Virus record (IMG/VR): IMGVR_UViG_3300011269_000001
Source: a virus
Reading direction: 5' to 3' (one strand)
DNA: 64,000 nucleotides
The position numbers and the translations under genes were made by a program. The notes beneath the pieces were generated by a model. That model was given only the letters and a program-made list of their open reading frames with translations, did no database searches and was not told where the DNA came from. Each line of letters starts with the position of its first letter. Positions within the stretch are counted from its first letter, which is position 1. Below are positions 35,301-60,929 of this stretch, piece after piece.

Positions 35301-36226
35301 TGCCCTAACTGAAGGTCGCCGTCCGGAGCCCAGGCTCGACATTCATTTTTCAAAAAGCCTTGGCGAATCTCTATCAATTTAATTTCTTTTGGAGGATTCA
35401 GTTCCTGCCATTTGCGGTCTTCCATGATGGCAACCAGCCGATTGTGTTCCAACCTGAACCGCGCCGGGTTATCCACGAAGAGTCGAGCTAGCTTGCCGGC
35501 TTTGATGCCATGCTTCGCATCGCCTTTATGCTTGTCCGTCCGAAAATTCTTCCAATCCGGGAATCTTTGCGTCGTGTCATCCTCGAAAGTGACGAATACA
35601 GCACTGTCGTAAAAGGTATCGCAGACATGAGGGAATACTTCGACGTAGAAATTGCCGGGCTTCACCGATGCTCGAAGGCGTTCGTAGTACTTGATGGCTG
35701 TCTGGAAATCGTTCCGGGCCATCATGTGTCGGTTGACCATACCGATGAGACAGCTACTGGTCATGGTGATGTTTTTGCTTCCCAGCTCTTCGATGTCGCG
35801 CCAGTTGAACAGCGGCTTCTTTTCTTTGCCGTGACGTTCAGCCCTGAAATCAGCAGCGCTCAGAATCCGAGAGCAGGTGCTATAGGCTTCCTCGTCAAGG
35901 AGGTGCATGGTAATATGGCCGTACTTGAAATCTTCGTCCAGGAATTTGCCATCCTTGTCTTTCTGCAAGCCCTTCTCAAGCAAAATAGGACAGTCATCGT
36001 CTCGGAAGTATCCCTCCAGACCCAGGATGGGAGTCAACTTGCCGCGGTACTCCTTGCTGTGGGCCAGGTCATAGACCTTTCGGACAACAGAGAGGGAGCC
36101 GTGGTCAGTGACGGTGATGGCGCCGGTGCCCAATTCAACTTCCTTCTTGGCGAAAGCCTCTGCATTCGAAGCAGAGTCGAAGGAATCAATATGGACGTGG
36201 GGGCTTGGATAGCCGGGGAAACTCAT
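32360..36226 (-). CDS. dnaE: DNA polymerase III alpha subunit (family C, DnaE-like)
   Basis: PHP motifs (HVHIDS, VTDHG, SDDAH), GPGRGSAAG, PDIDQD, GRHACG, KVDFL, YQEQ and FNKSH. Confidence 0.95.
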   Translation of the reverse strand: MSFPGYPSPHVHIDSFDSASNAEAFAKKEVELGTGAITVTDHGSLSVVRKVYDLAHSKEYRGKLTPILGLEGYFRDDDCPILLEKGLQKDKDGKFLDEDFKYGHITMHLLDEEAYSTCSRILSAADFRAERHGKEKKPLFNWRDIEELGSKNITMTSSCLIGMVNRHMMARNDFQTAIKYYERLRASVKPGNFYVEVFPHVCDTFYDSAVFVTFEDDTTQRFPDWKNFRTDKHKGDAKHGIKAGKLARLFVDNPARFRLEHNRLVAIMEDRKWQELNPPKEIKLIEIRQGFLKNECRAWAPDGDLQLGHNRFVLELAQRYGDPVLISDDAHFANPEEKIVQDIRLQQGGGAWRFSNVHHRVSSDQAWNYFRDVMKVDQSTFEYWIENNWAWSGRFKDFKFSPRITLPTKFYPSNTLEHTIELVRKHGRMDWHKPEYFDRLKSEIDLLHYNGTIDLLTYFFILEEIDWEYEKRGELAGPGRGSAAGMLLAYVLDITHVDPLERGLSRDRFLTLDRIQSGKFPDIDQDLPSRDILVDPEDPTKGWLRDRFGDCYAQISTDTTMKLKSSIKDVFRALYGRVDPTIEAICGDLPDPPQGITDHDFVFGYKSGDGTWTPGVIEKDGMLQYFVQNYPKEWEIIKRCLGLVRQKGRHACGFIISNEPIANFIPLTTIDKTRVTQFTATSVEAMGALKVDFLNLNSLKDIAVCIKLVQARSGVEIKLNPKYELPSIEIKNRRVPIIRVIPHRGEFYDIWKLPEDQAVFNDMCESKTESVFQFNTPGARQLLSNFNEVSFVENGEVHKGLDSIEDLSAFTALDRPGPLDYPVEDPVTGKKHNMLVEFANRAKNKAKIGSFPILDRLFPETYGVIVYQEQLQQVFQEVGKATAIEANNFRIHISKKQMSNVIKDRAIFMRGAVETIGKEAAEQLWNSMETFGQYGFNKSHSMCYVTIGYACAWLKHYYPLEWWTAVLRHADKDEIDTKFWRYCGHLITIPDINVSSEVFEIRGDKINAPLSFLNGIGENAHKQLMAGKPYANIEDLCQKIKKHKEDNKTVDAETGKEKKGHSSLHRGNLYPLVASGSLDSLFAPDILFEEKFMLLEAALARAESKKNAKPVNPLYQNTTPLIRYQLCKKVSPSFSSELFGSILSLKSKGFTEEIKGIWTYEYRDQKYRIVGNNGLNRLSEIVPVPEGGIAVGVCAYILNDERKDYFRKTDNKKCTRAEITLDIDGHRLTTVMWPSRKTGEIENLPATSIAGSIAIVVLYRSRDEGPFYIDGVEVIQPPLPKKLDEESK

Positions 36227-36231
36227 TCCGA

Positions 36232-36489
36232 TTAGTCTAACACGGATTGCTTCAATTTGAACGCGAGAGGTTCTTGACGACGAGGGAAAACATTCACGTA
36301 CTGGTCCGGCATCCAACCGTACATGGGAATATTGTTCTCAGTCACCGCCATCCATTTCTGTCCACAGTTGCTGCACTTCAGAAACAAGCCGCCGTCAGAG
36401 AAATTCAGAAAATCGTGATGACAGGGCTCTGGTGCTTTCTTCGGAAGAAGAGCCTTTAGGAGGTCGTTGATTTTACTTTTTGATTTCAT
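36232..36489 (-). CDS. Small Zn-ribbon protein
   Basis: CHH...CSNCG. Confidence 0.55.
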   Translation of the reverse strand: MKSKSKINDLLKALLPKKAPEPCHHDFLNFSDGGLFLKCSNCGQKWMAVTENNIPMYGWMPDQYVNVFPRRQEPLAFKLKQSVLD

Positions 36490-36716
36490 GGCAAATCCTC
36501 TTCCCGGACTTTCATCTTCCGACGCATTTTTCGGATGACTTTTTCGTACTGAGCCTCAACGTCTTCTTCAGTAATCAACAGTGCCTGAGCGATGACCCGA
36601 GACGGGGCACCGTCGGGGTAGCGTTCCAAGAGCTTGTTCAGGCTGTAGTCGAAGCGCTTGACGAAGATGAAGTCTGGGTCTGTTTCGATTCTGATGCGAG
36701 CTTCTTCCATCGTCAT
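36486..36716 (-). CDS. Stand-alone sigma70 region-4-like HTH protein
   Basis: LLERYPDGAPSRVIAQALLITEEDVEAQYEKVIRKMRRKM aligns by eye to sigma4 (L..RY..G.T..EIA..L.IT.E.V.Q...KA.RKLR). Confidence 0.6.
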   Translation of the reverse strand: MTMEEARIRIETDPDFIFVKRFDYSLNKLLERYPDGAPSRVIAQALLITEEDVEAQYEKVIRKMRRKMKVREEDLP

Positions 36717-37838
36717 TTAGAATCCAAAAAAGGGTTTGATGATTTTGTCCAGGGACTTGTCTTTGTCGGTGTGCTCGTCCACGTCAACGGTGAGTTTATG
36801 GCCGACGATATGACCCGGGACCGACTCCCAGATTTTCTGAGAGCAGGCGTTGTGGGTGATACCGATGCTCACGGCATAGGCATCAGGCGGCAGCAAGCAG
36901 CTGTTGGTCATGAAGATAACGCCGTTCGGGAGTTTTGTCTCGGAGTCTACGTGCACGTGGCCGCAGATAAAAAGCCGATGCCGTTTGTCCGGAGCAAGCT
37001 TGCCGTTAATTTCATTGACCTGCCGGCGAACCTTCTCTGTGTCGATGGACTTATTCGGATATCCGGGCGTCACCACCGTGTCGCCATGGGTTCCGAAACC
37101 GCTCATTCCGAAAGCGTCCCAGGTATAGAAAGGCATTAACGGGATGATGACTTCGACGTTGGGAATCTTCGCTGTCATCAGCGCGGTCTTGATGGAGAAG
37201 TAAATCATATTCTCCAGCGAATCCCACTTCTGATTGACGGCTCTGTCCTTGTGTCGGGCCGTATTTCGACCGTGATTGCCAGGGGTGCAAAACACGGTGA
37301 CTTTCTTGAACCGTCCACAGAGGTAAACGACGGCCTGCGTCAGGATGTGGACTGCACGGGAAAACTGTTCTGCCAGAGGAGCCCCATCCCGGGGGTCGTA
37401 GAGATGATTCTGGATGATGTCCCCGATGAGATGAATGAATAGTTGTGTCTCATCCCGATACTGGAGTTTCCATTCAGCCAGGGTCTGGACGATGAAAGCC
37501 ATTCGCCGTGACTCTTCGACGATGCCGTATTTGGTCGGAACTTCCCGCGGGTCCAGGTCTGAGCCAAAGTGTAGGTCAGACCAGATGCCGTTAAGGATTC
37601 GTTCCGTGGGAGTACGCCGGTCCTTCGCCTTGTACTGAGGGACGGCAATTTTGTCCTTGAAAATCTTCTCCAGTTTGTCTTCAATCTGAGACTGGAAAAG
37701 ATTGTTTTGTGCAGCCTGAAGGGTAACCTTCTTATTGACAAAACGCTGATTGACACCGAGGATGTCTTGCGCTTTGTCTTTAAGATAGGCTAAGACCTGC
37801 GCTTCTTGGAAGCGCGTTTCGTCAGCCTTTTTTGTCAT
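36717..37838 (-). CDS. Calcineurin-like metallophosphoesterase
   Basis: SDLHFG, IGDII, GNHG, THGD and GHVH. Confidence 0.88.
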   Translation of the reverse strand: MTKKADETRFQEAQVLAYLKDKAQDILGVNQRFVNKKVTLQAAQNNLFQSQIEDKLEKIFKDKIAVPQYKAKDRRTPTERILNGIWSDLHFGSDLDPREVPTKYGIVEESRRMAFIVQTLAEWKLQYRDETQLFIHLIGDIIQNHLYDPRDGAPLAEQFSRAVHILTQAVVYLCGRFKKVTVFCTPGNHGRNTARHKDRAVNQKWDSLENMIYFSIKTALMTAKIPNVEVIIPLMPFYTWDAFGMSGFGTHGDTVVTPGYPNKSIDTEKVRRQVNEINGKLAPDKRHRLFICGHVHVDSETKLPNGVIFMTNSCLLPPDAYAVSIGITHNACSQKIWESVPGHIVGHKLTVDVDEHTDKDKSLDKIIKPFFGF

Positions 37839-37841
37839 GGG

Positions 37842-38597
37842 TTACTGAGGCTGAGCAGGAGAAGGTTGCGTGGCCTCAGGCGTCGCTTCGGGAGCCGGCG
37901 GAGGAACAAGAGTCAAGCTTGGCTTGGCGGCTTCAGCTGCTGGAGCTGGAGTTGTCTCAGCGGTTGCTGGAGCTTCAGACGCCGGTGTCGCAGTAGCTTG
38001 GGCTTTTGCCTCGGCCTCGGCCTTTGCCTTGGCAAGAACTTCCTCTTGGGCTTTTGCCGCAGCCGCAGCCTCTTCCTTGGCAACTTCCTCAGAACGTTTC
38101 TCATCGACTTCGTAGATTTCGACAACCTCCCACTTACCACCAGGAGGAGTTTCGACCGTGAAGCCTATGCCCTGACCGAGCATCTTCTCGCCAATGGCTT
38201 TGTCGATTTGGCTAAAGCGGAGCTGCGAACGGCCTGGGAAGATAATCTCACCTTCCTTGGTGGTTTCTTTACCAATGAGGAGAGATTTGTCGGTGATTTT
38301 CTCCGAGACCACAAGAATGCCTTTGCCCTTAAGCGTTTCAATCTGGGCTACCTGGGCATCAGATTGTTCCTTCAGGCGATTGCGGCGAGTCTCGATGACC
38401 TGTTGCTGAACTTGCTCCATGCCAACGAGGACGACCACAGCGTCCAGCACCTCAGTAGCATTCATGACCTGGCTGTTGATGTTGCCCAGGCTCTGGTTGA
38501 CTGCGGTGATGATTTGCAATTGGCCTGCTTCAAGTGCATCCAGGCGCTCGATTGCGTTCTTGGTTCGTGCTCTCAGACTCGGATTTTCGTTTCCCAT
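37842..38597 (-). CDS. Coiled-coil protein with a possible GreA-C/FKBP-like domain and A/P/T-rich tail
   Basis: 'IGEKMLGQGIGFTVETPPGGKWEVVEI' resembles the GreA C-terminal 'IGRALLGKKVGD.VEVETPGG...EI..I'. Confidence 0.45.
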   Translation of the reverse strand: MGNENPSLRARTKNAIERLDALEAGQLQIITAVNQSLGNINSQVMNATEVLDAVVVLVGMEQVQQQVIETRRNRLKEQSDAQVAQIETLKGKGILVVSEKITDKSLLIGKETTKEGEIIFPGRSQLRFSQIDKAIGEKMLGQGIGFTVETPPGGKWEVVEIYEVDEKRSEEVAKEEAAAAAKAQEEVLAKAKAEAEAKAQATATPASEAPATAETTPAPAAEAAKPSLTLVPPPAPEATPEATQPSPAQPQ

Positions 38598-38602
38598 TTT
38601 TA

Positions 38603-39526
38603 TTACTCCCCTTGTACACCGCTAGATGCGATGGTGATTGCCTTGGCAATTGTTCCGCCCTGTGCTCGCAGTGCCATGTCCGCGTGCTGGACGTTAATCA
38701 TGTTCTGTTGCTCCGGAGAAATCGGTGGAAATGGCACTATACCAACTCCCGGCTTCGGGCGTGCTGGCGGGGTGATGTTCATCCTGACTTCTTTGCCGTC
38801 TTCAGTCACGACTGTTTTGAAAACCTTTCCGTCTTCAACTTCCACCGCCGGGTCATCCCTGAGGGCTGGGGGAAGTTCTGCTTTGCTCTTGTATCTCCCA
38901 GCGGTACTCTTGGCCTGTTTCCTCGTGGCGACAGGTTTTGGTATCACCTTAGATTGTGTCTGGATTGCAGACTTTCTCAGTGCCGGAGCCGGAGCGACTG
39001 CTCTGGGAGCAGGACGAGTGATGGTAGCGGTCTCAACCTTTTTCAGGGCAGGGGGTGCAGAAGAAGGTTTTGCCGGAGCCGGTGCCAGTGGTGCTACCAG
39101 GTCCGGTCTTTTCAGGACTCGGGCAGCTAGGGCCTTAAGAGCCGCTACTTCTTCCTGGTCGAAAAGCGGTGGGGGCGGGGGTTCGGCTTTCTTTTCCTCG
39201 GGCTTCATACCCAGGAGAACCGCGAGCCGGCCTCGAATAAATTCTCGGAGTTCGTTCTGTACGGTTTGAGAAGATTCCGTTTCCTCTTCGAACAAGTTGT
39301 CCTTAAGAATCAGATTGTAGTACTGGGCAATGTCAAGCCTTTTCTCAACCTCGGACATCTGGTTTTCGACTTCGTCAGCGTACTCAGCGACAACAGCCTC
39401 GGCTTCTTGCTCTTGTGCTTGAGCGGACGTCTGTGGATTTGCTTCTTGAGCAGGGTCAGCCGCATCTAACCCTTCCATGGGGTCTAAGGGCTCAGGATTT
39501 TCTTGATTGAAGTCAAACGGCATCAA
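38603..39526 (-). CDS. Hypothetical protein with an acidic N-terminus and Pro/Ala-rich linker
   Basis: 307 aa, GAGG RBS, own promoter. Confidence 0.6.
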   Translation of the reverse strand: MMPFDFNQENPEPLDPMEGLDAADPAQEANPQTSAQAQEQEAEAVVAEYADEVENQMSEVEKRLDIAQYYNLILKDNLFEEETESSQTVQNELREFIRGRLAVLLGMKPEEKKAEPPPPPLFDQEEVAALKALAARVLKRPDLVAPLAPAPAKPSSAPPALKKVETATITRPAPRAVAPAPALRKSAIQTQSKVIPKPVATRKQAKSTAGRYKSKAELPPALRDDPAVEVEDGKVFKTVVTEDGKEVRMNITPPARPKPGVGIVPFPPISPEQQNMINVQHADMALRAQGGTIAKAITIASSGVQGE

Positions 39527-39549
39527 ATCCTCAGTTCATCAACGCGTGC

Positions 39550-39558
39550 AGTATAACA
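39550..39558 (-). promoter_or_regulatory. Extended -10 promoter TGtTATACT
   Basis: In the 36-nt gap between RNR and the gene at 39526. Confidence 0.55.
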
Positions 39559-39562
39559 CAAT

Positions 39563-41470
39563 TCATTTCAACTCGCATGCATCCCCGGTGCAGGCAAGAG
39601 CTGAAGAGCCGGTGGTGTTGTCATCGTTTTCGTAATTCGACAGCTTTGAATAGTCGATGACTGGAAATCTTTTAACCATTTCTTCATATTCAGCTTTGGT
39701 GATTTCCTGATAGGGAGCCAATTCATATTTCCCGCCGTCGAAGGGGAGGAACGAGACACCGGAGATGTCGTCAAAATGGTCGTAGACCCAGGAGGCAACC
39801 TGAAGCCATTCGGTCTCTTTCACATAGACGGTCATGCTCTGGTTATGTTCACACCAATGCTTTTTTAATTTCAGGTACCATTCCAGCTGTTCGATGGCTG
39901 TGACGTCATGGCGGGTCAAAGCTTTGGCTGGAGCTGCTTCAGGGAATTCAACAACCCAGGTCATCACATCTTCTGGTTTCCAGTCGGGTCTGCTGCCGGG
40001 GCCTTGATTGAGTTCCGGCACGAACTTGACACCCTGGTCCTTCATCATCCGGTACAGAGGGTCGGTGGCACTTATCCGGTACCGGCGGATGTAAAACTTC
40101 GCGTATCGAGTATGGCCACCTGAGGCACAGTTGACCAGTTGACTGACAGAGCCGCTGGGCTTACCGGTGGTAATGGCCGCGGACATGTTTATACCCAAGG
40201 CCTTGCAAGCCTTCCGACACTCGCGAATTGCCACGTCCCGTAGGTCTTCTAGGCGCTCTTCGGTTATCAACTTGGGGTTGTCCATGAGCCCGGTTAGACT
40301 CACGCCCAGAAGCCTTTCTTTTTCGCACATTTCCTTGAAAGAAGGTCTGATGAATGGGAAGTCGGTAAGGCAGGCTTGCATGACGCCCAGCCACACCGAG
40401 CTTTTTACCTTTTCTTGAAGGGTAGCAAAGGTATCGTGGGCTCTGATGACGTTTTCCGTCAGATTACAGAACTCCCCGGTATCTACTCTGAGAATTATTT
40501 CAAAGCATGGATTAGCTCGAAAATATTCGCTCTCTTCGCGACGGGGACTAGACTTCTTTGCCGCAGCCAGGTTGAAGATACCCCGTTCCCCAGAACCGGA
40601 AGCTGCCAAAGCCGTCCACTCGCGCATGAAGGTAATCATGTCCGGCTTGCCAACGTATACGGCACTGTTGTTACTCTGCCGACGCTGCTCCGGGATGGGG
40701 AAATCCTTAGCATGCCGCATTCGTTCGTCGTCAAGGTCCGAGAATGTGGATTCTGCAGCCCGGCGGATGCCTCCAACTTCAGTGACCAAGCCGCACATAT
40801 TCCCGATGTCCAACCACTCGTCGGAATACAGTCGTCTGCCCTGAGCTTTGAGGATGATGTCTCTGGTAAATTGATGCAGGCGCATCAAAGGCTCTGGGCC
40901 GCTGGCACGGCCGCCCATGGTCTTGAGCCTTGCCCCGCGGCGCCTGACGTTGCTGTAGTTGAACTCTACGTCTTTGCCGTCGAACCAAGTTTCCACACCG
41001 ACCCTGAGACTGGTGGCCCATCCTTCCCTACTGTCGCCAACAACATGTGTCCCGACAGAAAATTCTGTGAAGGGTTTTACCGCCGGTATCTGGTCAATGA
41101 ACTGCTTCTCAATGGCAAAACTACAGCCGGTGCTGCACATGAGGATGTAGAAAAGTTCGGATGTACTCACGAGGTCCTGGAAAGCCAGGGCGCCGCAGTT
41201 GTAGCCGATGATATTGTTTTTCTCCAGTGCTGGCCCAGCGCTCCAGAGAGCGCGCATCGACGGCATCACGTCCATGCTCAAGACTGCTTCCTGGGTCTTT
41301 TGCCAGACTTTCTTCGGGACCTTGGATTCGAACTTCTTCTTGAAGAAAGCAAAATACCTTTCGACAGCCTCTTCCCAGGTCTCACGTCGCTGCAGGCCGT
41401 CCTGCCACCGGGAGTAGGTTCGGTAGAATACGAAGAGCTGTGATGGAGAAAGTGATTTCATTCTTGTCAC
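39563..41470 (-). CDS. nrdJ: Class II (B12-dependent) ribonucleotide reductase, monomeric RTPR type
   Basis: RTYSR, PSMRALW, YNC, GGRASGPEPL, NPCFEI, CNLTE, KPSGSVSQL and C-terminal CTGDAC. Confidence 0.93.
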   Translation of the reverse strand: MTRMKSLSPSQLFVFYRTYSRWQDGLQRRETWEEAVERYFAFFKKKFESKVPKKVWQKTQEAVLSMDVMPSMRALWSAGPALEKNNIIGYNCGALAFQDLVSTSELFYILMCSTGCSFAIEKQFIDQIPAVKPFTEFSVGTHVVGDSREGWATSLRVGVETWFDGKDVEFNYSNVRRRGARLKTMGGRASGPEPLMRLHQFTRDIILKAQGRRLYSDEWLDIGNMCGLVTEVGGIRRAAESTFSDLDDERMRHAKDFPIPEQRRQSNNSAVYVGKPDMITFMREWTALAASGSGERGIFNLAAAKKSSPRREESEYFRANPCFEIILRVDTGEFCNLTENVIRAHDTFATLQEKVKSSVWLGVMQACLTDFPFIRPSFKEMCEKERLLGVSLTGLMDNPKLITEERLEDLRDVAIRECRKACKALGINMSAAITTGKPSGSVSQLVNCASGGHTRYAKFYIRRYRISATDPLYRMMKDQGVKFVPELNQGPGSRPDWKPEDVMTWVVEFPEAAPAKALTRHDVTAIEQLEWYLKLKKHWCEHNQSMTVYVKETEWLQVASWVYDHFDDISGVSFLPFDGGKYELAPYQEITKAEYEEMVKRFPVIDYSKLSNYENDDNTTGSSALACTGDACELK

Positions 41471-41787
41471 CGAACCCTTGGTGGACGTCGAAGTTCATAG
41501 GCTTCAAGATAGGCGGTTGCGTTGCGAGACCTTTCGACGGTGATGCCCCGACCAAGATAAGCGTGATTGCAAAACCAATCAGTCACTCCACGAACATATA
41601 GTTTCCGCTGCTCGGGAGGCATCTGGCGCCATTTTTTTACATGTTCGTGGTCAGTGACCATACGTCCTGTGGTCGGGACCTGTTTGCACACCGGGCAAAC
41701 CCCATCCTGTCGTTCGAGGATAGCCAGCCATTCCTCGGCTGTAAGACCATACTTGTTCAGTGTGGTCTTCGACGGTACCTTAACCAT
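41467..41787 (-). CDS. Endonuclease VII-like resolvase
   Basis: KYGLT...Q.GVCPVC...VTDHEH...VRG...CN..LG. Confidence 0.85.
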   Translation of the reverse strand: MVKVPSKTTLNKYGLTAEEWLAILERQDGVCPVCKQVPTTGRMVTDHEHVKKWRQMPPEQRKLYVRGVTDWFCNHAYLGRGITVERSRNATAYLEAYELRRPPRVR

Positions 41788-41797
41788 GACTAGAAGT

Positions 41798-42088
41798 TTA
41801 TCGCTTGCCGCGAGCTTCCAGAATGGAATGCGCGAAGCTGATGCGAAGCCTGTTCATCTTCGTCGCTTCCGAATACTGCTCCCCGGCAAACTTAGCTGCG
41901 TCGCGCTTTTCTTTGAGGTCTTGGTCAGCTTTCTTTGCCGCCAGATTCTCAACTTCATTCATCGCGACTTCGGCAATCCGCTGGCTGATTTCTTCGTCAG
42001 TCATGCCGGCGACGTTCTCTTTGAACTCCACATCCAAGTCAGCCCAAGGGCTTTTGTCTTTTTTCATGCGACGCATTAGAGTCTCCAA
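41798..42088 (-). CDS. Coiled-coil hypothetical protein
   Basis: 96-aa helical ORF. Confidence 0.55.
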   Translation of the reverse strand: METLMRRMKKDKSPWADLDVEFKENVAGMTDEEISQRIAEVAMNEVENLAAKKADQDLKEKRDAAKFAGEQYSEATKMNRLRISFAHSILEARGKR

Positions 42089-42139
42089 TATTCTGTGTAA
42101 TGCATTTTCGTTTCAGACCGAATATAGTCTGAGGACAGA

Positions 42140-42148
42140 AGTATATCA
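42140..42148 (-). promoter_or_regulatory. Extended -10 promoter TGaTATACT
   Basis: Intergenic 42089-42155. Confidence 0.55.
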
Positions 42149-42155
42149 CGAATCC

Positions 42156-42461
42156 TCAGTTCTTCTTCGGAGCTTTTGGCTTCGGGTCCCCGTCATCGTA
42201 GTCGTGGTAATCGACGTCCGGTTCTGAGTACTGGTTCCAGAGAAGGATTTCAAATTTCTCTTGCCAGTCGGGAACTAACAGCCCTCTTCGGTTCAAAAGC
42301 GCCAAGGACCCCTGAAGATAAGAAATCGCCACCAGCTCACCTTCGCCGAGGTCGTATTGCCCCGAGTCTGGGAGAATGCAGGGTCTGGGCGCTTCAAGGA
42401 GTGCTGTCCGAGCAGCTGACTTCAGAAGTAGAACCTCTTGCACCGTTAGTCTTTTGGACAC
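42156..42461 (-). CDS. Hypothetical protein
   Basis: 101 aa, overlaps the SbcC end. Confidence 0.5.
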   Translation of the reverse strand: MSKRLTVQEVLLLKSAARTALLEAPRPCILPDSGQYDLGEGELVAISYLQGSLALLNRRGLLVPDWQEKFEILLWNQYSEPDVDYHDYDDGDPKPKAPKKN

Positions 42462-44581
42462 GAGACCACCCGAGAATGCCCAGTCGATTTGTCGAATTCA
42501 ATGTCGATAAACTGCGAAAAAGATTCTTTAACTTCGGTCATGTGGTCAATCACCAGGATGAGCTTCTCCTGAGCATAGCTGCGAAGAACTTCCAATGCGG
42601 ATTCCTTAGTCACCAGTCCCTGGCCTTCCCCGCTTTCGTCCATTGAGAACCAACCAGGCATGCAACCAGTCCGGCGTTGAATCACGTCCATGAGAGCCAG
42701 GTCGACGATTTGATGCACGCTGGCTTTCATGCCGCCACTGAGCGCCGCTTCGAGTCTACCTTCGTGGCCGCCGACATTCACCAACGGCACGATGGACTTC
42801 TTGAGCGTACCTTTCTGCAGGAGTGATTCGGTCCTGAACCTAATAGTCACATGAGATACGTTCGGTAACCGTCCAAGTCGGGTATTGGCCTCTTCACTGA
42901 TTTCCTGCAGGATTTCGTCGAAAACCAGCCCCAGGAATCCGTTGCGGCCCACCATTTCCACGTAGTCTTTTTCCTGGGCCAAACTCTTCTGCAAGGTCGT
43001 CAGCTTTCCCTGAGCCACAATTACCAATTCTTCCTGAGTCAGGACTTCTTGGGTATTGCGGTCGTATTCTCTTTGCTTCCATTCGTTCCCACCCTTGATG
43101 GCTTCAATCTTGTTTCGGGCATGGGCGATGAAGTTCCCCAACTCAAGCACCTTTGCAAGCCGGCTAGAGACCAAAGCCTCGGCTTCCATTTCTTTTTTGT
43201 ATTTCTCCCGGCGGACGTTCTCAAAGTCAGCTCTCAGCGCAGTCGTCTTTGTGTTCAGCGCGTCAAGGGCTTGGAGCTTTTCTCTTTCAAATCGGGCGGC
43301 CTCGGCGCTAATATCATCATCGAATCGTATCTTCAGGTCTTCAAGCTTCTTGATGTCTTCGTGAGGCTGGAATGCATTTTGCGCAACGGCGATGGCACGT
43401 TGGACCGTGATGGTGAACGGGATAACTACGTTTTGGATGTTGTGAATCTTTGTCTTGAGCTGAGCCATTTCCTCCATGTACTTGGAGATATCCATGGCAA
43501 CATCCTGAGGCCATTCCTGACCGCACGTCGGGCAAAGGTCTTCCTTGACGGCCTTGATTTTGGCTTCAATGGAATGAAGTTCTTTTTCCAGGTGCGGGAG
43601 ACTGGCAGCAATACTGAGGGCTCCGGTCAGTTTCTGCCTCATGTCCTGAATGGCTGCGTCTTCTTTCTTTTTCCGGGCGGTGTCATCAGCCTGAAGGTCT
43701 TTGATTCTTTTGATGATACTCTCCCGAAGAGCTACCAATTCACTCTTGGGCATTACCTGAGCACGTACCTCCCGGGCATCTTTTTCAAGACCGAGGATGA
43801 CCGCGGATAGGTCGTCCATCTTCTTGTTAAACCCGCCCTCGCTAATATTCTGTGATGACAGAACCTTAACCGCCTGCTTGGCTTCTTCGTGTTGGTTCTT
43901 CGCTTCTTCAAGCCTGCGCTGCGCATCCTCCAGGACAGTCACAACCCCAGAATCGTCTTCGAAAATAAGCTGTCCGGTGTTGTTCTTCTTTCTTTCTAGG
44001 GCTTGCTTCTCGCTTTGTAGAGCAGCTTCCAGCTGAGGTAACTGCCTGGTCAGGTTTTTGATTTCTTCTTCGGCTGCGTCCACCGAGGCCTCGAACCGGT
44101 CCAGGCCCACCAGTTGAGATAGGAATTCTTTTTTCTCTGAGTCAGTCTTGCTGAGGAACAGACCTCCGCGGGCCTGTGCTCTATACGTCAGCGCAGCTAG
44201 AACTTCTGGAATCTGACCAAAGACCTTCTGAAAATTCTCGCTGATGGCCCGGGCGCCGGTGATGGTTTGGTCGCCAATCTTGAGAACGTTTTTCTTTCCG
44301 CGGCCAATGACTACGTCACCTTGTGGTGTGCCCAGGCACAAGTAGACCTGCAGGGGCTCGTCAGTAAGCCAAGACTGTAATTCAGTCGCCGGCAATTGAC
44401 CAGGAAAATCCAGGGCGTAAGCAATGGCCAAATTGACATTGCTCTTCCCGGTTCCGCTCGATTCACCGCTCTTGTTGTCGTTGCCTCGGATGAGAACGAG
44501 ACCAGTCTCAGGGAATTTGATGAAAGCCTCTTCCGCGAAACTTCGAAAGGCTTTCATTTTCAGCCACTTGAGTCTTATCAC
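42446..44581 (-). CDS. SbcC/Rad50/gp46-like SMC ATPase
   Basis: Walker A SGTGKS, Zn hook CPTCGQ, signature LSGG, Walker B MDE and H-loop IDH. Confidence 0.93.
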   Translation of the reverse strand: MIRLKWLKMKAFRSFAEEAFIKFPETGLVLIRGNDNKSGESSGTGKSNVNLAIAYALDFPGQLPATELQSWLTDEPLQVYLCLGTPQGDVVIGRGKKNVLKIGDQTITGARAISENFQKVFGQIPEVLAALTYRAQARGGLFLSKTDSEKKEFLSQLVGLDRFEASVDAAEEEIKNLTRQLPQLEAALQSEKQALERKKNNTGQLIFEDDSGVVTVLEDAQRRLEEAKNQHEEAKQAVKVLSSQNISEGGFNKKMDDLSAVILGLEKDAREVRAQVMPKSELVALRESIIKRIKDLQADDTARKKKEDAAIQDMRQKLTGALSIAASLPHLEKELHSIEAKIKAVKEDLCPTCGQEWPQDVAMDISKYMEEMAQLKTKIHNIQNVVIPFTITVQRAIAVAQNAFQPHEDIKKLEDLKIRFDDDISAEAARFEREKLQALDALNTKTTALRADFENVRREKYKKEMEAEALVSSRLAKVLELGNFIAHARNKIEAIKGGNEWKQREYDRNTQEVLTQEELVIVAQGKLTTLQKSLAQEKDYVEMVGRNGFLGLVFDEILQEISEEANTRLGRLPNVSHVTIRFRTESLLQKGTLKKSIVPLVNVGGHEGRLEAALSGGMKASVHQIVDLALMDVIQRRTGCMPGWFSMDESGEGQGLVTKESALEVLRSYAQEKLILVIDHMTEVKESFSQFIDIEFDKSTGHSRVVSCPKD

Positions 44582-44835
44582 TTGTTTTCTTCCATTTCTC
44601 GGTCAAACTTCAGAGAGCGTTCGCGGTGAATTCTCTCAGCATCGGCGGGCCTTGTCAATTTGCGAATCATAACCCCGTTGTCAAGGGTCTCGACAACCTG
44701 GGCCTGAGAGCCTTTCGGAGTCCGCACCAGGACCTTGCCGCAGATGCAATACCGCTGAACTTCGACTTCTTCTGTGCTGAGAAGTCTACGTTCCTTGCGG
44801 CCGCAGCCGGGACATTGGAAATAATACAAAGGCAC
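44578..44835 (-). CDS. FmdB-like Zn-ribbon protein
   Basis: GTG start MPLYYFQCPGCG...CICG. Confidence 0.7.
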   Translation of the reverse strand: MPLYYFQCPGCGRKERRLLSTEEVEVQRYCICGKVLVRTPKGSQAQVVETLDNGVMIRKLTRPADAERIHRERSLKFDREMEENK

Positions 44836-44837
44836 GT

Positions 44838-46610
44838 CTAGGCTCTTTCGTCGGCTTCGTTGACGTTGGCACTGCGAATCCATTCAGCTGTATCCCGGGC
44901 TTCGGTCCTTTCCACTTCTAGGTCTCTCTTGAAAGCCACGGTTCCGCCACAGGTCCCGAGCTGCGAAGCGATGCTGAGGCTGGTCTGGATAGCTACCCTA
45001 ACCGCGGGTACGCTATCCAAAATTCCTCCCTCAAGAGCATCGACATACTTACCTTCAAGGGCGTCGTAGACGGTCTTGGAATTCCTCATGGACTCAGTGA
45101 TTTTGCCGATGATGGTGTCAACCTCTTCGGTCGTGTGACCAGAATTTGAGAAAATGAGTGCCGCAGTCTCTTTGAGAGCCGGAGCCAGGACTTGCTTGAG
45201 GATTTCGGTCTGTAGTGAATGTTCGACCAGGTTAATTTCCCGGGCAATTTTCAAGAGAGTCCAACCTCCACCCGGAAGGGCTCCGTGGTTGATAGTACCT
45301 CGGACTCCGCAGACTGCATCTTCAGCCCTGTCTCTTTTTTCCCGGGTCTCACCGAAGCTCGAACCGAAAACCTTCAGTTTGGCGATGCCGCCGGTGAGCT
45401 TGCCGATGCGTTCCTGGACGAGAGCCTTCTCCAATTCCCCGGACTCGGCTTGAATCTGCTTCTGAAGATTGTCGACCCGCTCCAGGACCAGGATTTCATC
45501 GTTCCTGCCGATGATTGCAGACCGGAAGCGACCGGCTTCGAATGCCGTAACCCCGCCACCAAGCTCGTTCAGTTCTGCGCGCTCCAGCGGAAAATCCAGG
45601 CCGTCAAAAATCTTCGCCCCGGTCAGAGCTGAAAGGTCCTTCAGGAATTCATACTGACCAGTTCGCATAGCACTCAGTGGCGCCAGCAACGGATAGACGT
45701 TGATGCTGTGTGCATCCAGGAAGTTCACGGCAAAGTCGGCCAGAGCAGCCTCACTGAATTTCGTGGCCACGAGGACGACATTGTGCGCATACCCTTGATT
45801 CTGCCAGGCATCGCCGATGCGCTCCAGAAGCAGGACCGCGGTCTGGGTCTGATTGATTGGCCCATGGTAGAGAATGAAGACCGGACGCTCCAGGTAACAA
45901 ACCTGTGCCGCAGGGTCGTTGATGAACTTTTGGTAGAACGGTCCGCAGCAATCCTCATAGCCGATAGGAATCGGGTAACCGTCAATCTTCTCGGCCTCGT
46001 AGTGGCTTTCGCCCGGTAACTCCATGATGGTCACGTTGCCGTCATCACCGACAAGCCGAAAGCATTCCATCACGGCTTCTGCGAGGGCTGTGTCACCGTT
46101 GGCACTGACCTTGGCCACGGACTTGAGGATATTCAAGCCCTCTGGGGTCGTACTATCCGCGGGGATGGAATTCTGCTTGATGGTCGGTTCAACGTACCAC
46201 CGGAAGGCGTCTTCCAGGGTTCTGACAACTCGCTGTGGAGAAATCTTTGGGTTTGCTTGGCAATATTCGCTTATCTTCCGGGTAATGGCCTCTGCGAGCA
46301 CGGTTGCGGTCGTGGTCCCGTCGCCGGCCTCGTTGGCCGTCCGGACCGCAGCATCACGAACCGATTCCATGATGAGTTGCGAGGTGCTGTCATTGAACCC
46401 AAGGTGCCTGAATACCGTTACCCCGTCCTTCGTGACCATTGGCGGCAGTCCCACTTCCTGTCTCTCGATGAGCACCGGCATCCCGCCCGGTCCCAGAGTC
46501 GCCCCCACCATGTCCGCGCAGGTCTTCAGGGTGCTGAGAACTTTCTTCTGCAGCTGCGGACCTTTTACGAACATGTCTTTGCTTACTGACTTTGGCTTCT
46601 GATATTGCAT
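44838..46610 (-). CDS. groEL: Chaperonin GroEL-like
   Basis: TLGPGG, TKDGVTV, AGDGTTTATVLA, ERIGKLTGG, EKRDRAEDA and PGGG. Confidence 0.95.
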   Translation of the reverse strand: MQYQKPKSVSKDMFVKGPQLQKKVLSTLKTCADMVGATLGPGGMPVLIERQEVGLPPMVTKDGVTVFRHLGFNDSTSQLIMESVRDAAVRTANEAGDGTTTATVLAEAITRKISEYCQANPKISPQRVVRTLEDAFRWYVEPTIKQNSIPADSTTPEGLNILKSVAKVSANGDTALAEAVMECFRLVGDDGNVTIMELPGESHYEAEKIDGYPIPIGYEDCCGPFYQKFINDPAAQVCYLERPVFILYHGPINQTQTAVLLLERIGDAWQNQGYAHNVVLVATKFSEAALADFAVNFLDAHSINVYPLLAPLSAMRTGQYEFLKDLSALTGAKIFDGLDFPLERAELNELGGGVTAFEAGRFRSAIIGRNDEILVLERVDNLQKQIQAESGELEKALVQERIGKLTGGIAKLKVFGSSFGETREKRDRAEDAVCGVRGTINHGALPGGGWTLLKIAREINLVEHSLQTEILKQVLAPALKETAALIFSNSGHTTEEVDTIIGKITESMRNSKTVYDALEGKYVDALEGGILDSVPAVRVAIQTSLSIASQLGTCGGTVAFKRDLEVERTEARDTAEWIRSANVNEADERA

Positions 46611-47097
46611 CTTGGTCCTCGTTGACGATGATGGTCCGGTCGTTGGCCCATCCTTGTCCCAAAAAATATCTTTTGCGTCGAACGGAGATTATACCACCTT
46701 CTTGGAACTTTTTCAGGTATCTCTGAGTTTGACTTCGGCTCAACCCCGAGGCTGCAGCAAGTTGTTTATCACTCATGGTGCAGGGATTTCTCCTCCCGAG
46801 AATCATGAGCAGGACTTCTTTTCTATTGACCTCTTTCCCGATTCGGTCGTTGAGAAGGTCAGGGTACATCTTCATGAATGACCAGAGGCTCTTTTGTCTT
46901 TCCTCGTGAGAAGCGAACTCAACTAGCTCCTGGTAAACGACCCTGTCCGGAAGAATTCCTGGCGGGGTCAAGGCCTTCATCCTGAGCCATTGTTCTTCCG
47001 GGGATGGTTCTCCGGAGTCTACAGACCCAACGTAAAAAACTTTCCCGTTTCTGGGGTCCGCGAAGGTAAAAATTCTGCCTTTCCAAGCTTCTGTCAC
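46390..47097 (-). CDS. GIY-YIG-like N-terminus plus winged-HTH protein (regulator or initiator candidate)
   Basis: IFTFADPRNGKVFYVGS and SDKQLAAASGLSRSQTQRYLKKFQEGGIISV wHTH. C-terminal 221 nt overlap groEL. Confidence 0.55.
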   Translation of the reverse strand: MTEAWKGRIFTFADPRNGKVFYVGSVDSGEPSPEEQWLRMKALTPPGILPDRVVYQELVEFASHEERQKSLWSFMKMYPDLLNDRIGKEVNRKEVLLMILGRRNPCTMSDKQLAAASGLSRSQTQRYLKKFQEGGIISVRRKRYFLGQGWANDRTIIVNEDQDAISEAKVSKQRHVRKRSAAAEESSQHPEDLRGHGGGDSGTGRDAGAHRETGSGTAANGHEGRGNGIQAPWVQ

Positions 47098-47104
47098 GGC
47101 CGGT

Positions 47105-47113
47105 ATGGTAGCA
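47105..47113 (-). promoter_or_regulatory. Extended -10 promoter TGcTACCAT, 7 nt before the GTG start (leaderless)
   Basis: Spacing puts the transcription start at or next to the start codon. No RBS present. Confidence 0.45.
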
Positions 47114-47118
47114 CGAAC

Positions 47119-47260
47119 GATGAGGCTTCACCAACACTGAAGCCTCATCCGAAAGAAAAAATAAAACGGTGCTTCACAGTACCTACATCTCTGAAGCGTC
47201 AGTTTATTTTTCCTCTCCCCGGATCTGAAGCCTCAGTTTATTTTTGATGAGGCTTCAGTG
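47119..47260. repeat. Cluster of TGAAGCCTCA direct/inverted repeats (origin or operator candidate)
   Basis: GATGAGGCTTCA 47119-47130 and TGAAGCCTCATC 47138-47149 form an inverted pair. 22-bp direct repeat TCTGAAGC(G/C)TCAGTTTATTTTT at 47190 and 47224. GATGAGGCTTCAGTG at 47246-47260. Confidence 0.85.
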
Positions 47261-47409
47261 TCACTATCTAAATCCTATTATCATGACACATATAAGAAGG
47301 TGATTTTTTGAGTTCGTAGAATTCTGACAGCTTAACAAATTGGCTGCGCCTTAATGGGAAAAATTTTCTTTTTCGCGTCAGAGCCCCGGTTTGGTGTATA
47401 CTCAAAGTC

Positions 47410-48081
47410 TTGAGGTGGATGACAATGCTCGTGAACTTCGTCGGTAGTCCAGCAAGTGGGAAGACCACTACCGCGGCTATGCTCTTTGCTACCCTGAAGG
47501 AAAGAGGATTGGCAGCTGAGTTCATCACCGAAGTAGCTCGTTACTACATCGCTGAAAGAAAGTTTTTTCTGGCTCTGGAGAATTTGGAAATGCCGGTTCT
47601 CTACGACCTAGACCAATGCAAAATCATGGACCGTCAATACAGGACAGAGTACACGATGGTCATCAACGGAGGAAGAGATTCTCTGATTATCAGCGATGGA
47701 AGTCCATTGAACTCTCTTCTCTACATGACTCCGGAATTTCGCCAGAACCCCTTGATTCAAGACCTCGTGGAAAGAACCAAACGGCTAATGGAAGGTCCAT
47801 GTGGTCTACCAAAGTCCCTGACGTTTATCTGTGCCCCGGTAGACCGTGACCGCAACATCCCCGACCCTAACAGAGCCCATGACTTAGAGCAGATTAAGAA
47901 AATCGATAGTCAACTCATTGACGTCATGAATCAAACCGGATTGGGACTGCTGACAGAACCCGGAGTCTTTCTGGAGGCACTTGGGGAATGGAAGGAAGCC
48001 CGCTGGATTTGGTTGACCGGTGACACTCAGCGAAGACTTACCGATGCCTTGGAATGGGTTTACCGAAGGTTATGTGAATGA
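47410..48081 (+). CDS. P-loop nucleotide kinase/ATPase (NadR/AAA_28-like)
   Basis: NFVGSPASGKTT, EFITEVAR and IISDGSPL. TATACT at 47397-47402 upstream. Confidence 0.8.
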   Translation: MRWMTMLVNFVGSPASGKTTTAAMLFATLKERGLAAEFITEVARYYIAERKFFLALENLEMPVLYDLDQCKIMDRQYRTEYTMVINGGRDSLIISDGSPLNSLLYMTPEFRQNPLIQDLVERTKRLMEGPCGLPKSLTFICAPVDRDRNIPDPNRAHDLEQIKKIDSQLIDVMNQTGLGLLTEPGVFLEALGEWKEARWIWLTGDTQRRLTDALEWVYRRLCE

Positions 48082-48233
48082 AAAAAGTTCGTTGCTTTAT
48101 TTGTCAGAGAGTGTTCAAGCATCGGCAACCAGGAATCTGGGTGGCCCGACACTTCCCTAACTGCCCAAAGTGGAAGTACCTGACAGAGCCGCGTCGCCTG
48201 GTTTATCGAAATGGTTCCTGGTGGGATGAATGA
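48078..48233 (+). CDS. 51-aa Zn-finger-like protein (not in the ORF track)
   Basis: MKKVRCFICQRVFKH...RHFPNCPKW...WWDE. ATGA overlaps with both neighbours. Confidence 0.65.
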   Translation: MKKVRCFICQRVFKHRQPGIWVARHFPNCPKWKYLTEPRRLVYRNGSWWDE

Positions 48234-49741
48234 GCATTCTTGACGTTGTTGACCCGGTACGGATGTACATCCGCGGATACGAAGACCGTCTGGGAGAACT
48301 TCAGACCGGTCTCACGTACGTAGACAAGAAAGTCGACTACCTGATTCAGAGGCACAGGCACGCTCACTGGTTCCGGCGAAAGTATGGAGAAGAAGCCTAC
48401 CAGGAAAAGATGAAAACCCTCAAGGCTGAGCGGAAGAAGTGTTTGCTCTTCATCGACGAAGAAGGAATGTGGACTTACTCCGGTCTCAAGTCCTTTGTCG
48501 AGTCCATTGTCCGATCCGACGAAATCCGTTCCCAAATCGAATATCCAGAGCCAAAACTCATGGCCTGGGACGCCAAGCCCGTGAATGAGAGGTATCCGTA
48601 TCAGTTCACGGCCACCGAGAAAATGCTCCACCACCGTCACTGTGCCGTGGAACTCGCGACCGGCCTCGGGAAGACTTTTATTATTCTTCATCTGGTGAAG
48701 GAACTCGGTTTGAAGACTTTGGTCATGGCCCCGAGTCTCAGTATCGCTGAGCAGATTCGGGACCTGTTCATTGAACACTTCGGCCGGCGTCGGGTTGGAC
48801 AGTTTTTTGACGGCCGGAAAGAAGTCCACAAGCTCATAACCGTGGGCATTCCGCAGTCCCTGATTAGAATCGAAGAAGATTCCCCGGAGCAGCAGGCCTT
48901 AAGCCAGGTCCAGGTCTTTATTGCCGATGAATCCCATCTCTGCCCAGCACAGACCCTGGCAAACGTCTGCTTTGGGCTTATGAAGGCCGCTCCCTACCGA
49001 TTCTTCTTCTCGGGTACCCAGATGCGAAACGACGGCCTGGATACGCTCCTTGGCGCTATAACCGGGCCAGTCGTTCTTCGCATGACTGTCCGTGAAGGAG
49101 TTGACCACAATCCTCCGTACCTTGCCAAGCCCGTGTTCAGGATGGTCAAGACTTTTTCTCAGTCTCCGTTCCGGGGTCAGGACGTGAATGACATGACCCG
49201 GACGCATCTGTACTACAACCCTGTGGTTGTCAGCCAAGCGGCTTTGATTGCCAACAATTCCGTGGCGGCCTACGGTCACCCGGTATTGATTCTCGTGGAT
49301 GAGATTGAGCAGTTCGTCCAACTTCTGCCTCAGCTCCGGCATCGGGTCGGATTTGCTCATGGGCCTTTGGACGCTGAGAACAAAGGCAAGGTCCCTGACG
49401 CCTATCATGTCAGTGAGCCGAACTTTCTGGTTCGAGAATTTAATAATCTGCGTTTGCCTATCCTCGTCGGTACCAGCTGCATCAGTACGGGTACTGACGT
49501 ACAGGCAGTGAAGACGATGATAAACCTCCGCGGCGGAAAATCAGAAATCGAGGTCCGCCAATCTGTAGGTAGATGTACGAGACTTCATAAGCCCGGAGAG
49601 AAAATAGCCTGCAATATCTTTGACTTCGACGTCGCGAACGTTGAACCGGTGAGCCGGCATGCGAAGTTCCGGAAGAAGGTGTATGAGGAGATTTATGGTC
49701 CCGTGGAGGACGTAGACTGGCGAATGAGTCTGGGAAAATGA
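48230..49741 (+). CDS. SF2 DExH helicase (UvsW-like)
   Basis: YPYQ, ATGLGKT, IADESH, FSGT, STGTDV and QSVGRCTR. Confidence 0.92.
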   Translation: MSILDVVDPVRMYIRGYEDRLGELQTGLTYVDKKVDYLIQRHRHAHWFRRKYGEEAYQEKMKTLKAERKKCLLFIDEEGMWTYSGLKSFVESIVRSDEIRSQIEYPEPKLMAWDAKPVNERYPYQFTATEKMLHHRHCAVELATGLGKTFIILHLVKELGLKTLVMAPSLSIAEQIRDLFIEHFGRRRVGQFFDGRKEVHKLITVGIPQSLIRIEEDSPEQQALSQVQVFIADESHLCPAQTLANVCFGLMKAAPYRFFFSGTQMRNDGLDTLLGAITGPVVLRMTVREGVDHNPPYLAKPVFRMVKTFSQSPFRGQDVNDMTRTHLYYNPVVVSQAALIANNSVAAYGHPVLILVDEIEQFVQLLPQLRHRVGFAHGPLDAENKGKVPDAYHVSEPNFLVREFNNLRLPILVGTSCISTGTDVQAVKTMINLRGGKSEIEVRQSVGRCTRLHKPGEKIACNIFDFDVANVEPVSRHAKFRKKVYEEIYGPVEDVDWRMSLGK

Positions 49742-49744
49742 GAT

Positions 49745-50260
49745 GTGAAAAACGCACTTTGTCATCCCGAACGACGACATTATGCCAAAGGCTTGTGTGA
49801 GTCGTGTTGGCGCCGGGAGCGGTACAATCGAAAGCTAAAGGGTTACTACCAGCAAAGATACATCGAAAATTCAGAACAATTTCGGGAGTATTCGCGGGGT
49901 TGGAGAAAAAGGAATCCGGGGGCGGCGAGAGCGAAGGGTACCTTACAGCATCGTTTTGGCAATCTACTCCAAGTATCTAAAAAACGTCGGCTGGAATGTA
50001 CGCTTGCTTTTGAAGATTTTCTAAAGCTCGCAGCCCAAAAATGTACTTATTGTAATGGTTTTTTCGGCGGCAGCAAAACCGGATACGGCCTTGACCGAGT
50101 TGACAACAGCGTTGGTTATACTAGGGAAAATGTGGTTAGTTGTTGTCCCACATGCAATAAAATAAAAAGCGACCATCTTACATTTGAAGAAACCTGTGCC
50201 GCTGTACGTGCTATAATCACAGTACGTCAGGGGAATCAGGTTTCTAATGAGTGTCGATGA
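49745..50260 (+). CDS. HNH homing endonuclease
   Basis: AKGLCESC DNA-binding motif and CTYC...GLDRVDNSVGYTRENVVSCCPTCNKIK. More AT-rich than flanks. Confidence 0.88.
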   Translation: MKNALCHPERRHYAKGLCESCWRRERYNRKLKGYYQQRYIENSEQFREYSRGWRKRNPGAARAKGTLQHRFGNLLQVSKKRRLECTLAFEDFLKLAAQKCTYCNGFFGGSKTGYGLDRVDNSVGYTRENVVSCCPTCNKIKSDHLTFEETCAAVRAIITVRQGNQVSNECR

Positions 50261-51302
50261 ATCAGCAGAGCATTTTCAGGTATTTGCCTCCAATCTGGAG
50301 AAGTGCATTGAGAAGTACGGCCCCGGCGAAGACGAATCCCTCCTGGAGCGCCAACGCCGACAGATAAAGCTCCTCATCAGCCTTGAGACCAAGTTCCGGA
50401 AGGTTCTCCTGGAGCATCGTTGGGGTCCGGGAATCTACCGCCGGTTCGTTCACTTCATTTGCGAGGAACGCCGAAACATTCTCGCCGCCAGGCCCTACTT
50501 CCGGGAACGACAGACGGTTTTCACGAAGTACATCAGCAACGCCCTGAAAAAGAAACGCGACCGGTCTCTGTATCGATTCCGGTTCAATTACATGTTCGTG
50601 CTCTTTGCCCTCCGTTGCTACCGATGGCGGGCCGGTAGCGAAGTCGTCGCCTTGGCGAAGCAAATTGAATCCATCCGTCGGGAACTGATGGAAATGAACA
50701 TGCCCTTGGCTATCAGCCAGACGCGAATTTTCTGGTCCAGCACCCCAAGGTCTCACCTCTCGTATATGGACCTGATTCAGATTCATTGTGCCGGCCTCCT
50801 GGCAGCCATCGACAAGTTCGTGCCCGGGAGCACCCGCGGGATGACTAAGACACAGGCCCTGGAGGAATATCGCAAGTTCCGAGCCGTGGCAATCGGAAGA
50901 ATGATTGGAGACCGTATAGAGCAGTACTCTGAGACTCTGATTCACTTCTACCCTGTCGACAAACGGAAAATATATCGTGCCAATAAACGGCTTCGGCAAT
51001 TTCCGGACCAGATTGACCACGAGGCCCTGTCGCAACTTGTCAACGCTGAAGTCGACAATCCCGCTCACCGAACCAACGCCGCGGAAATTGCTGACTTACT
51101 GGCTTCTGCCTCGGTTCTGAGCCTTGATGCTGAAACTGAATCCGAGCCAGATGGTATAATCAGCAGGTACGTGGACCCGGCAACAGAGGGTGGGGAAAAA
51201 ATAGAAAAAGCAGACGCGATGATTGCCATGCAGGCTGCCATCCAGGACCTTCCTATGATGGAAAAGAAATTGTTGCGGATGCGAGGAGTTTCGTATGAAT
51301 GA
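50247..51302 (+). CDS. Phage sigma70-family factor lacking region 4.2
   Basis: Region 2: RRELMEMNMPLAIS...YMDLIQ...GLLAAIDKF...FRAVAIGRM. Region 3: EIADLL...LSLD. Ends at AIQDLPMMEKKLLRMRGVSYE. Confidence 0.8.
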   Translation: MSVDESAEHFQVFASNLEKCIEKYGPGEDESLLERQRRQIKLLISLETKFRKVLLEHRWGPGIYRRFVHFICEERRNILAARPYFRERQTVFTKYISNALKKKRDRSLYRFRFNYMFVLFALRCYRWRAGSEVVALAKQIESIRRELMEMNMPLAISQTRIFWSSTPRSHLSYMDLIQIHCAGLLAAIDKFVPGSTRGMTKTQALEEYRKFRAVAIGRMIGDRIEQYSETLIHFYPVDKRKIYRANKRLRQFPDQIDHEALSQLVNAEVDNPAHRTNAAEIADLLASASVLSLDAETESEPDGIISRYVDPATEGGEKIEKADAMIAMQAAIQDLPMMEKKLLRMRGVSYE

Positions 51303-51642
51303 GCCTTTGCTGAACGCGAATGCGAAAGTAACCGGCTACATGCAGGTCCTGCCATTTGGGGCCTGGACTGTGGGTAAAGTTCTTGCCCTGGAGCCATTTC
51401 CGACGATGTCTATTGAGAAAGACACTCGCAGTGGTTTTACGACCATTCGCCAGAAGGCTACTCTGACGGGTCTCAGGGTTGTCTTTCCCTCGGAAGATAA
51501 TCGATTTCTTGCCGGCGATACGGTTTTCGTGATGGCAGACAACTACGCCCAGCCATTCGCCAAGAACGTCTATGAGCAGGAAGGAAAGAAGTTCATTCTC
51601 TGTCCCGAGGCTCTCATCCAATTGGTGCGCCGTGGAACCTAA
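51295..51642 (+). CDS. GroES/Cpn10-like co-chaperonin
   Basis: VLALEP...EKDTRSGF (mobile loop)...RVV...AGDTVFV...EGKKFILCPEALI mirrors Cpn10 topology. Confidence 0.6.
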   Translation: MNEPLLNANAKVTGYMQVLPFGAWTVGKVLALEPFPTMSIEKDTRSGFTTIRQKATLTGLRVVFPSEDNRFLAGDTVFVMADNYAQPFAKNVYEQEGKKFILCPEALIQLVRRGT

Positions 51643-55603: not shown

Positions 55604-55610
55604 CAATCTT
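55604..55610 (+). promoter_or_regulatory. CAATCTT putative late-promoter box
   Basis: Intergenic, 33 nt before the ATG at 55644. Confidence 0.6.
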
Positions 55611-60922: not shown

Positions 60923-60929
60923 CAATCTT
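60923..60929 (+). promoter_or_regulatory. CAATCTT putative late-promoter box
   Basis: Followed by the GAGGAG RBS and the ATG at 60953. Confidence 0.65.

Follow-up and report, generated by a model that had tools for sequence, protein, structure and literature searches.

The window analysed in this study is a stretch of 64,000 nucleotides (nt) from the IMG/VR record IMGVR_UViG_3300011269_000001 and forms part of a complete circular virus record of 164.9 kb. We focussed on two of its open reading frames (ORFs), one encoding a truncated sigma factor of the sigma70 family (50247-51302, plus strand, 351 amino acids (aa); here the sigma), the other encoding a small protein with a helix-turn-helix (HTH) resembling sigma70 region 4.2 (36486-36716, minus strand, 76 aa). 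Both exist as an earlier note on this DNA had quoted them and were confirmed as genes; a distance of 13.5 kb separates them, and they are on opposite strands. The sole cultured phage with relatives of the sigma or the small protein is Myxococcus phage Mx1 (OR576727.2), which agrees with the window phage in gene set and gene order. Identity to the Mx1 proteins is 41% for the sigma (putative sigma WNM70309.1) and 47% for the small protein, whose counterpart is an unbroken 80-aa ORF immediately before dnaE (record 157455-157697, minus strand; L128:32456-32698) that is missing from the GenBank annotation. Concerning the sigma, the Mx1 annotation says "putative" only, and the Mx1 paper is silent on both genes (PMC10720576). 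A search of bacterial genomes returned only phage-sized contigs in bins, one of them, a related contig, in a Myxococcales bin. Viral contigs scanned with E. coli RpoD yielded only host-like rpoD. The Mx1-related phage family encoding the truncated sigma and the small protein is large, the small-protein family alone comprising 443 representatives at 50% identity.

A Pfam search with the sigma ORF alone gave no match. Profiles of the sigma family align colinearly with SigA/RpoD over regions 2 to 4.1, the latter in full (E 5e-15 to 4e-13); the value of 5e-15 was obtained with a divergent subclade included, and the profile alignment ends at E. coli residue 566. The AlphaFold (AF2) model (predicted local distance difference test, pLDDT, 86) has only sigma70-family chains as its top fold matches. 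Superposed on sigma70 (VIA Z 12.1, root-mean-square deviation (rmsd) 16.8, 285 residues aligned, the domains hinge), it covers about residues 93-567 of the E. coli protein, i.e. regions 1.2 to 4.1. Homology of regions 1.2, 2 and 3 to the sigma70 family is thus present. The earlier note had recognised regions 2 and 3 and placed the stop at the start of region 4.1; the protein also keeps region 1.2 and all of region 4.1, and stops at the end of the latter. It was right that the sigma ends before the -35-reading HTH. Homologues numbering 119 share one end point; the 119 distinct C-termini collected from viral and metagenome loci all stop within 27 residues of the profile end, and the region 4.2 HTH is absent from every one. 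A sequencing error or frameshift at the stop was considered and rejected: the stop is natural, because contigs of three other studies carry identical bases across it, with no change or indel, and all 119 relatives end alike. By its sequence, the large protein is a sigma70 derivative and not a canonical group 1 or group 2 member, since the region 4.2 HTH is missing from the same chain.

The region 4.1 stump at the C-terminus is strongly constrained even though its usual packing partner is gone. L335 is conserved in 98%, K341 in 100%, L343 in 93% and G347 in 99% of the sequences, and the columns equivalent to sigma70 R541 and R554 are mostly hydrophobic. In region 2.3 (window 50877-50936) the tryptophan pair is missing; no Trp occurs at those columns and a conserved A-I-G-R-M is found instead; promoter melting by the sigma may differ from the usual. 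An invariant Gly and Arg pattern was also seen in this region. In some homologues (L089:9950-12229, L090, L348) about 400 aa are inserted in frame, giving frames of at least 760 aa; the insertion is possibly an intein. The divergent homologues L370, L371, L097 and L328 have long region 3 insertions, one with Cys-rich motifs.

The AF2 model of the small protein (pLDDT 93) consists of four helices. Many sigma4 structures align through their HTH with residues ~30-70, every Z being 3.0 or lower, and these matches begin only at residue 29-34. On T. aquaticus SigA, residues 29-76 superpose on 386-435 (VIA Z 2.3, rmsd 4.6, 48 aligned). The first 28 residues matched no sigma4 in fold and hhalign comparisons and are family-specific; in the model, helix 26-32 may substitute for part of the second 4.1 helix. 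Of the isolated region 4 described in the earlier note, the 4.2-like part therefore stands, the whole region does not. The window protein reaches no Pfam cut-off and Foldseek found nothing in the PDB at E 0.001; the best BFVD match, at E 0.03, is an uncultured phage protein labelled sigma4. TIGR02937 is matched by 24 of 150 family members, NarL by 10 of 150. Sigma70_r4 is found in 63-83% of the members of the Atlas neighbours at 0.94, a value that drops to 0.79 or lower once sigma4 clusters are taken out. NCBIfam and Atlas thus lean towards a sigma4 ancestry. A Pfam scan of the genome revealed no second sigma4. A faint likeness between residues 18-35 of the small protein and 9-26 of the sigma (E 0.1) was treated as chance.

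The acidic recognition helix pointed out in the earlier note is real and conserved. Its mean net charge is -3.1, and 128 of 150 family members are at -2 or lower, as compared to -1 to +2 for 26 control helices of E. coli sigma4 and LuxR type and 0 to +2 for six E. coli sigmas. The -35 specificity residues of sigma70 are R584, E585 and R588 (PMC2613000). At the columns equivalent to R584, R586 and R588, 70-85% of the small proteins have Glu or Asp, and the basic -35-reading helix is absent. Normal -35 reading by the small protein is therefore unlikely.

The promoters of these phages were approached through the words preceding their genes. CAATCTT is the top 7-mer before plus-strand genes in 79 sigma loci (53 seen against 6.7 expected, the loci not being independent). 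In the window phage 17 of 44 plus-strand copies, and in Mx1, where the box is identical, 11 of 25, lie 8-60 nt before a plus-strand start, where about 5% would be expected; the minus-strand copies do so in 0 of 30 cases. The boxes precede genes of the virion arm (Table 1). No -35 partner word upstream of CAATCTT exceeded shuffles (7 vs 7.2), and upstream information is limited to the five bases before the box, with 0.4-0.5 bits at -5 to -2. Judged by motif enrichment and predicted starts, CAATCTT is a candidate -10-only late promoter, and probably it is the truncated sigma that reads it. The minimum distance from box to start is 13 nt, which is also the commonest in Mx1. A box placed at -13 to -7 keeps A-11 and T-7 and lets the start fall on the ATG, which suggests leaderless mRNAs. 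Minus-strand genes near the arm divergence (sigma loci L002-L097) show enrichment of a second upstream word, TTCGCTATA, which is a possible early or middle promoter.

On the sigma70 scale the two proteins meet. The sigma ends at SigA 387 (E. coli 566-567) and the match of the small protein begins at SigA 386 (E. coli ~566), so that together they cover E. coli sigma70 93-567 and ~566-603, subject to an ambiguity between sigma4 and LuxR discussed below. Because the end points meet on SigA, the two proteins are complementary. Co-occurrence in related phage genomes, a check named in the earlier note, was found in 18 of 18 near-complete virus records, in addition to the window genome and Mx1. A complex prediction of the small protein with the phage sigma, in line with another of its proposals, scored 0.60 against 0.02 for the best control, with contact agreement of at least 58% and partner pLDDT of at least 75 in the runs. 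Among solved pairs 58 of 80 attained the mark, among mismatched pairs 2 of 110; since only 7 solved pairs and both mismatches passed at 0.60 or under, this is a weak score, and halves of a split domain may pass through their likeness to solved sigma4. The prediction thus gives weak support to binding of the sigma and the small protein to each other.

The truncation, the conservation of the families, the acidic helix, the co-occurrence and the placement of the motif were observed. From them we infer, with confidence a little above even, that the late sigma of Mx1-like phages consists of two subunits divided between regions 4.1 and 4.2, with the small protein capping the stump as a DNA-blind, sigma4-like late co-factor. 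The large subunit (regions 1.2-4.1) would bind host core RNA polymerase and recognise one -10-type box, (C/T)AATCTT, with a weak bias in the bases immediately before it. The small protein would dock on the 4.1 stump of the sigma and there complete a module resembling sigma4, located at the beta-flap position. Without reading -35 DNA, its acidic helix would contact a basic protein surface instead, so that the protein would co-activate late transcription as a gp33-like co-factor. The contact of the acidic patch of T4 gp33 with the basic zinc-binding domain of RNA polymerase (PMC7892883) may serve as a precedent by analogy. The earlier note had proposed a free-acting sigma4; as the split lies inside domain 4, docking on the stump of the phage's own sigma is indicated rather than a free sigma4.

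Several findings weigh against such a partnership. Co-occurrence is unspecific, other core genes co-occurring equally, and the mirror-tree correlation of the sigma and the small protein (r 0.67) compares to 0.57-0.66 for other core genes. Sequence scores are alike for sigma4 and LuxR-type ancestry of the small-protein HTH (hhalign E 6e-4 for the E. coli sigma4 set, 4e-4 for the LuxR set), its best PDB sequence match is NarL, and all its fold matches stay at Z 3.0 or below. Neither a fused nor an adjacent arrangement turned up among ~190 loci or longer proteins: a fused form is missing among longer proteins, which is weak evidence, and among N-terminally extended homologues, and the closest genes lie 3.4-3.6 kb apart in two rearranged genomes. 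Covariation between the proteins showed no enrichment at the stump (10 of the top 100, 10.6 expected), but 40 pairs are too few for this to count either way. The descent of both proteins from one ancestral gene by fission of a true sigma70, as the earlier note would have it, is conjectural, given the missing fused or adjacent forms and the equal scores. A history in which one sigma domain broke between 4.1 and 4.2 is conceivable at somewhat less than even confidence; the 4.2 half would have become a core gene, exchanged Arg for Glu in its helix, lost -35 reading and reassembled with the stump as an obligate late co-factor, possibly tied to the replisome.

Further points concern dnaE and the competence of the sigma on its own. 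In 43 of 48 loci, and in 12 of 12 further ones, the small gene precedes dnaE by no more than 1.3 kb, often abutting it, and a rearrangement in L078 and L080 carried it along with dnaE. According to the passage on Kumar 1993 in PMC2613000, sigma70 without region 4.2 works alone at extended -10 promoters, so that a partner is not strictly required. Together with the LuxR likeness and the 0.4-0.5 bits upstream of the late box, these points favour a truncated sigma that acts alone on -10-only promoters, the small protein being an unrelated HTH-derived replication factor, e.g. an acidic accessory of DnaE or the replisome. We rate this explanation as rather unlikely, as the predicted binding (weak), the exact complementarity of the end points and the conserved hydrophobic stump speak against it. 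Moreover, T4 gene 33 encodes a late-transcription co-activator and is located among replication genes, showing that such genes can sit there. In the rearranged L078 and L080 the small gene and dnaE are now on the strand of the sigma, 3.4-3.6 kb downstream of it; in L078 dnaE is broken up by insertions.

The small protein could also, in line with the competitor proposed in the earlier note, inhibit host sigma transcription through the beta-flap or host sigma4, shutting off -35/-10 promoters and sparing the 4.2-less phage sigma, comparable to T4 AsiA and SPO1 Gp33. Its acidic, DNA-unfriendly helix and the position of its gene on the pre-late arm, which lacks CAATCTT boxes, agree with this. Sigma70 region 4.1 helps to form the flap-tip pocket, and the small protein is without region 4.1; the predicted model, weak as it is, puts it on the phage sigma. 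Even though SPO1 Gp33 does block the host sigmaA holoenzyme and spare phage sigmas (PMC13401047), we regard inhibition as improbable. Slightly more improbable still is an adaptor that links the late holoenzyme to the phage replisome and, with no phage clamp involved, couples late transcription to replication. Such an adaptor would unite the two strongest signals, the predicted docking on the sigma and the linkage to dnaE, and in T4 late transcription is as a rule coupled to replication (PMC7892883). Against it, a search for a phage beta clamp found none, and no conserved clamp-binding motif is present in either protein (loose pattern, sigma 0/119, small protein 6/150).

Table 1. Features of the window that bear on the sigma and the small protein
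Feature	Position	Strand	Basis or context
Group-1-derived sigma70 factor, regions 1.2 to 4.1, without region 4.2, 351 aa	50247..51302	+	profiles, AF2 model, Mx1 identity
Region 4.1 stump, two helices, aa 314-347	51186..51287	+	strong conservation; likely docking site
76-aa protein, family-specific N-terminal part and 4.2-like HTH	36486..36716	-	family, AF2, Atlas
HTH, aa 36-65, in register with sigma70 570-599	36522..36611	-	hhalign, VIA
Acidic recognition helix, aa 49-56	36549..36572	-	net charge
DNA polymerase III alpha (dnaE), constant downstream neighbour of the small gene	32360..36316	-	43/48 and 12/12 loci; Mx1 annotation
UvsW-like helicase, upstream of the sigma	48230..49741	+	beside the sigma in 41/41 loci
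SbcD/gp47-like nuclease, downstream of the sigma	51572..52684	+	phrog_100 E 1e-27
CAATCTT candidate late promoter box	2194..2200	+	29 nt before ORF 2223
CAATCTT candidate box	10441..10447	+	21 nt before ORF 10462
CAATCTT candidate box	13636..13642	+	26 nt before ORF 13662
CAATCTT candidate box	55604..55610	+	40 nt before ORF 55644 (gene before portal)
CAATCTT candidate box	60923..60929	+	30 nt before ORF 60953
CAATCTT candidate box	62859..62865	+	35 nt before ORF 62894

Other genes were noted around the two. Between the helicase and the sigma, overlapping the sigma start, lies an HNH endonuclease gene (window 49745-50260) that is absent in Mx1; its PHROG matches carry the label Srd anti-sigma but seem to reflect shared HNH-type similarity. 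The 85-aa ORF between the small gene and dnaE (window 36232-36489), which has a zinc-ribbon-like motif, occurs in only about 5 of 48 loci. A conserved 247-aa gene (window 31616-32359) follows dnaE in most relatives and matched no family. A GroEL-like chaperonin (PF00118 E 6e-37) and an adjoining 101-aa gene (together window 44578-46610) are conserved in 39 of 41 loci. The SbcC-like (window 42446-44581) and SbcD-like genes are on opposite arms of the divergence point.

Among known systems, T4 with gp55 and gp33, plus the gp45 clamp (PMC2988020, PMC7892883), likewise combines a late sigma lacking a -35 reader with a single -10-type box and a second, small protein that recognises no sequence. The order UvsW-sigma-gp47 equals the UvsW-gp55-gp47 order of cyanophage ACG-2014j, the helicase-sigma-gp47 arrangement of T4-like cyanophages. 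The T4-like logic suggested in the earlier note is supported by the -10-only CAATCTT promoters and the gp55-like gene position, the fission being conjectural. However, gp55 is essentially sigma2 only, whereas the sigma described here keeps regions 1.2-4.1; gp33 is structurally unrelated to sigma4, whereas the small protein has a 4.2-like HTH; and in place of gp45 neither a phage clamp nor a clamp-binding motif was detected. Among the matches of the two proteins listed by tblastn, PHROGs or fold search there was no T4-like phage, although such lists may miss homology to gp55 and gp33. The pair would resemble gp55/gp33 in function but does not belong to the T4 system, given the far greater length of the sigma, the HTH in the partner and the missing clamp motifs.

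Bacillus subtilis SigO-RsoA and Tn916 Sig7-Sig8 also distribute sigma function over two genes with sigma-derived subunits; their division falls between regions 2 and 4, and they recognise both -10 and -35 (bioRxiv 10.64898/2026.10.01.756105). In the present pair it is domain 4 itself that is broken, the 4.2 part seems blind to DNA, and 3-25 kb separate the genes. SPO1 gp34 and gp33 resemble the present pair as a late sigma without its sigma4 part and a small partner, essential in SPO1 (PMC13401047). SPO1 Gp33 differs as an inhibitor of the host sigmaA holoenzyme (PMC13401047), and no sequence likeness to the sigma or the small protein was found. Engineered E. coli sigma70 without region 4.2, as described for Kumar 1993 in PMC2613000, has the anatomy of the large subunit and is active at extended -10 promoters. 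It is a laboratory construct working on TGn-TATAAT promoters, whereas the sigma of these phages is natural and conserved, uses another box and has its tryptophan dyad replaced.

Our literature search found no description of a sigma split between regions 4.1 and 4.2 or of Mx1 transcription. Known two-subunit sigmas are split between domains 2 and 4 or have an unrelated partner. If true, a split inside domain 4 with an acidic DNA-reading half would separate, in nature, the -35 reading of sigma4 from its polymerase binding. As Mx1 is cultured on M. xanthus and the family is large, a direct test is possible, and in Mx1 it would provide a first description of how myxophages transcribe their late genes.

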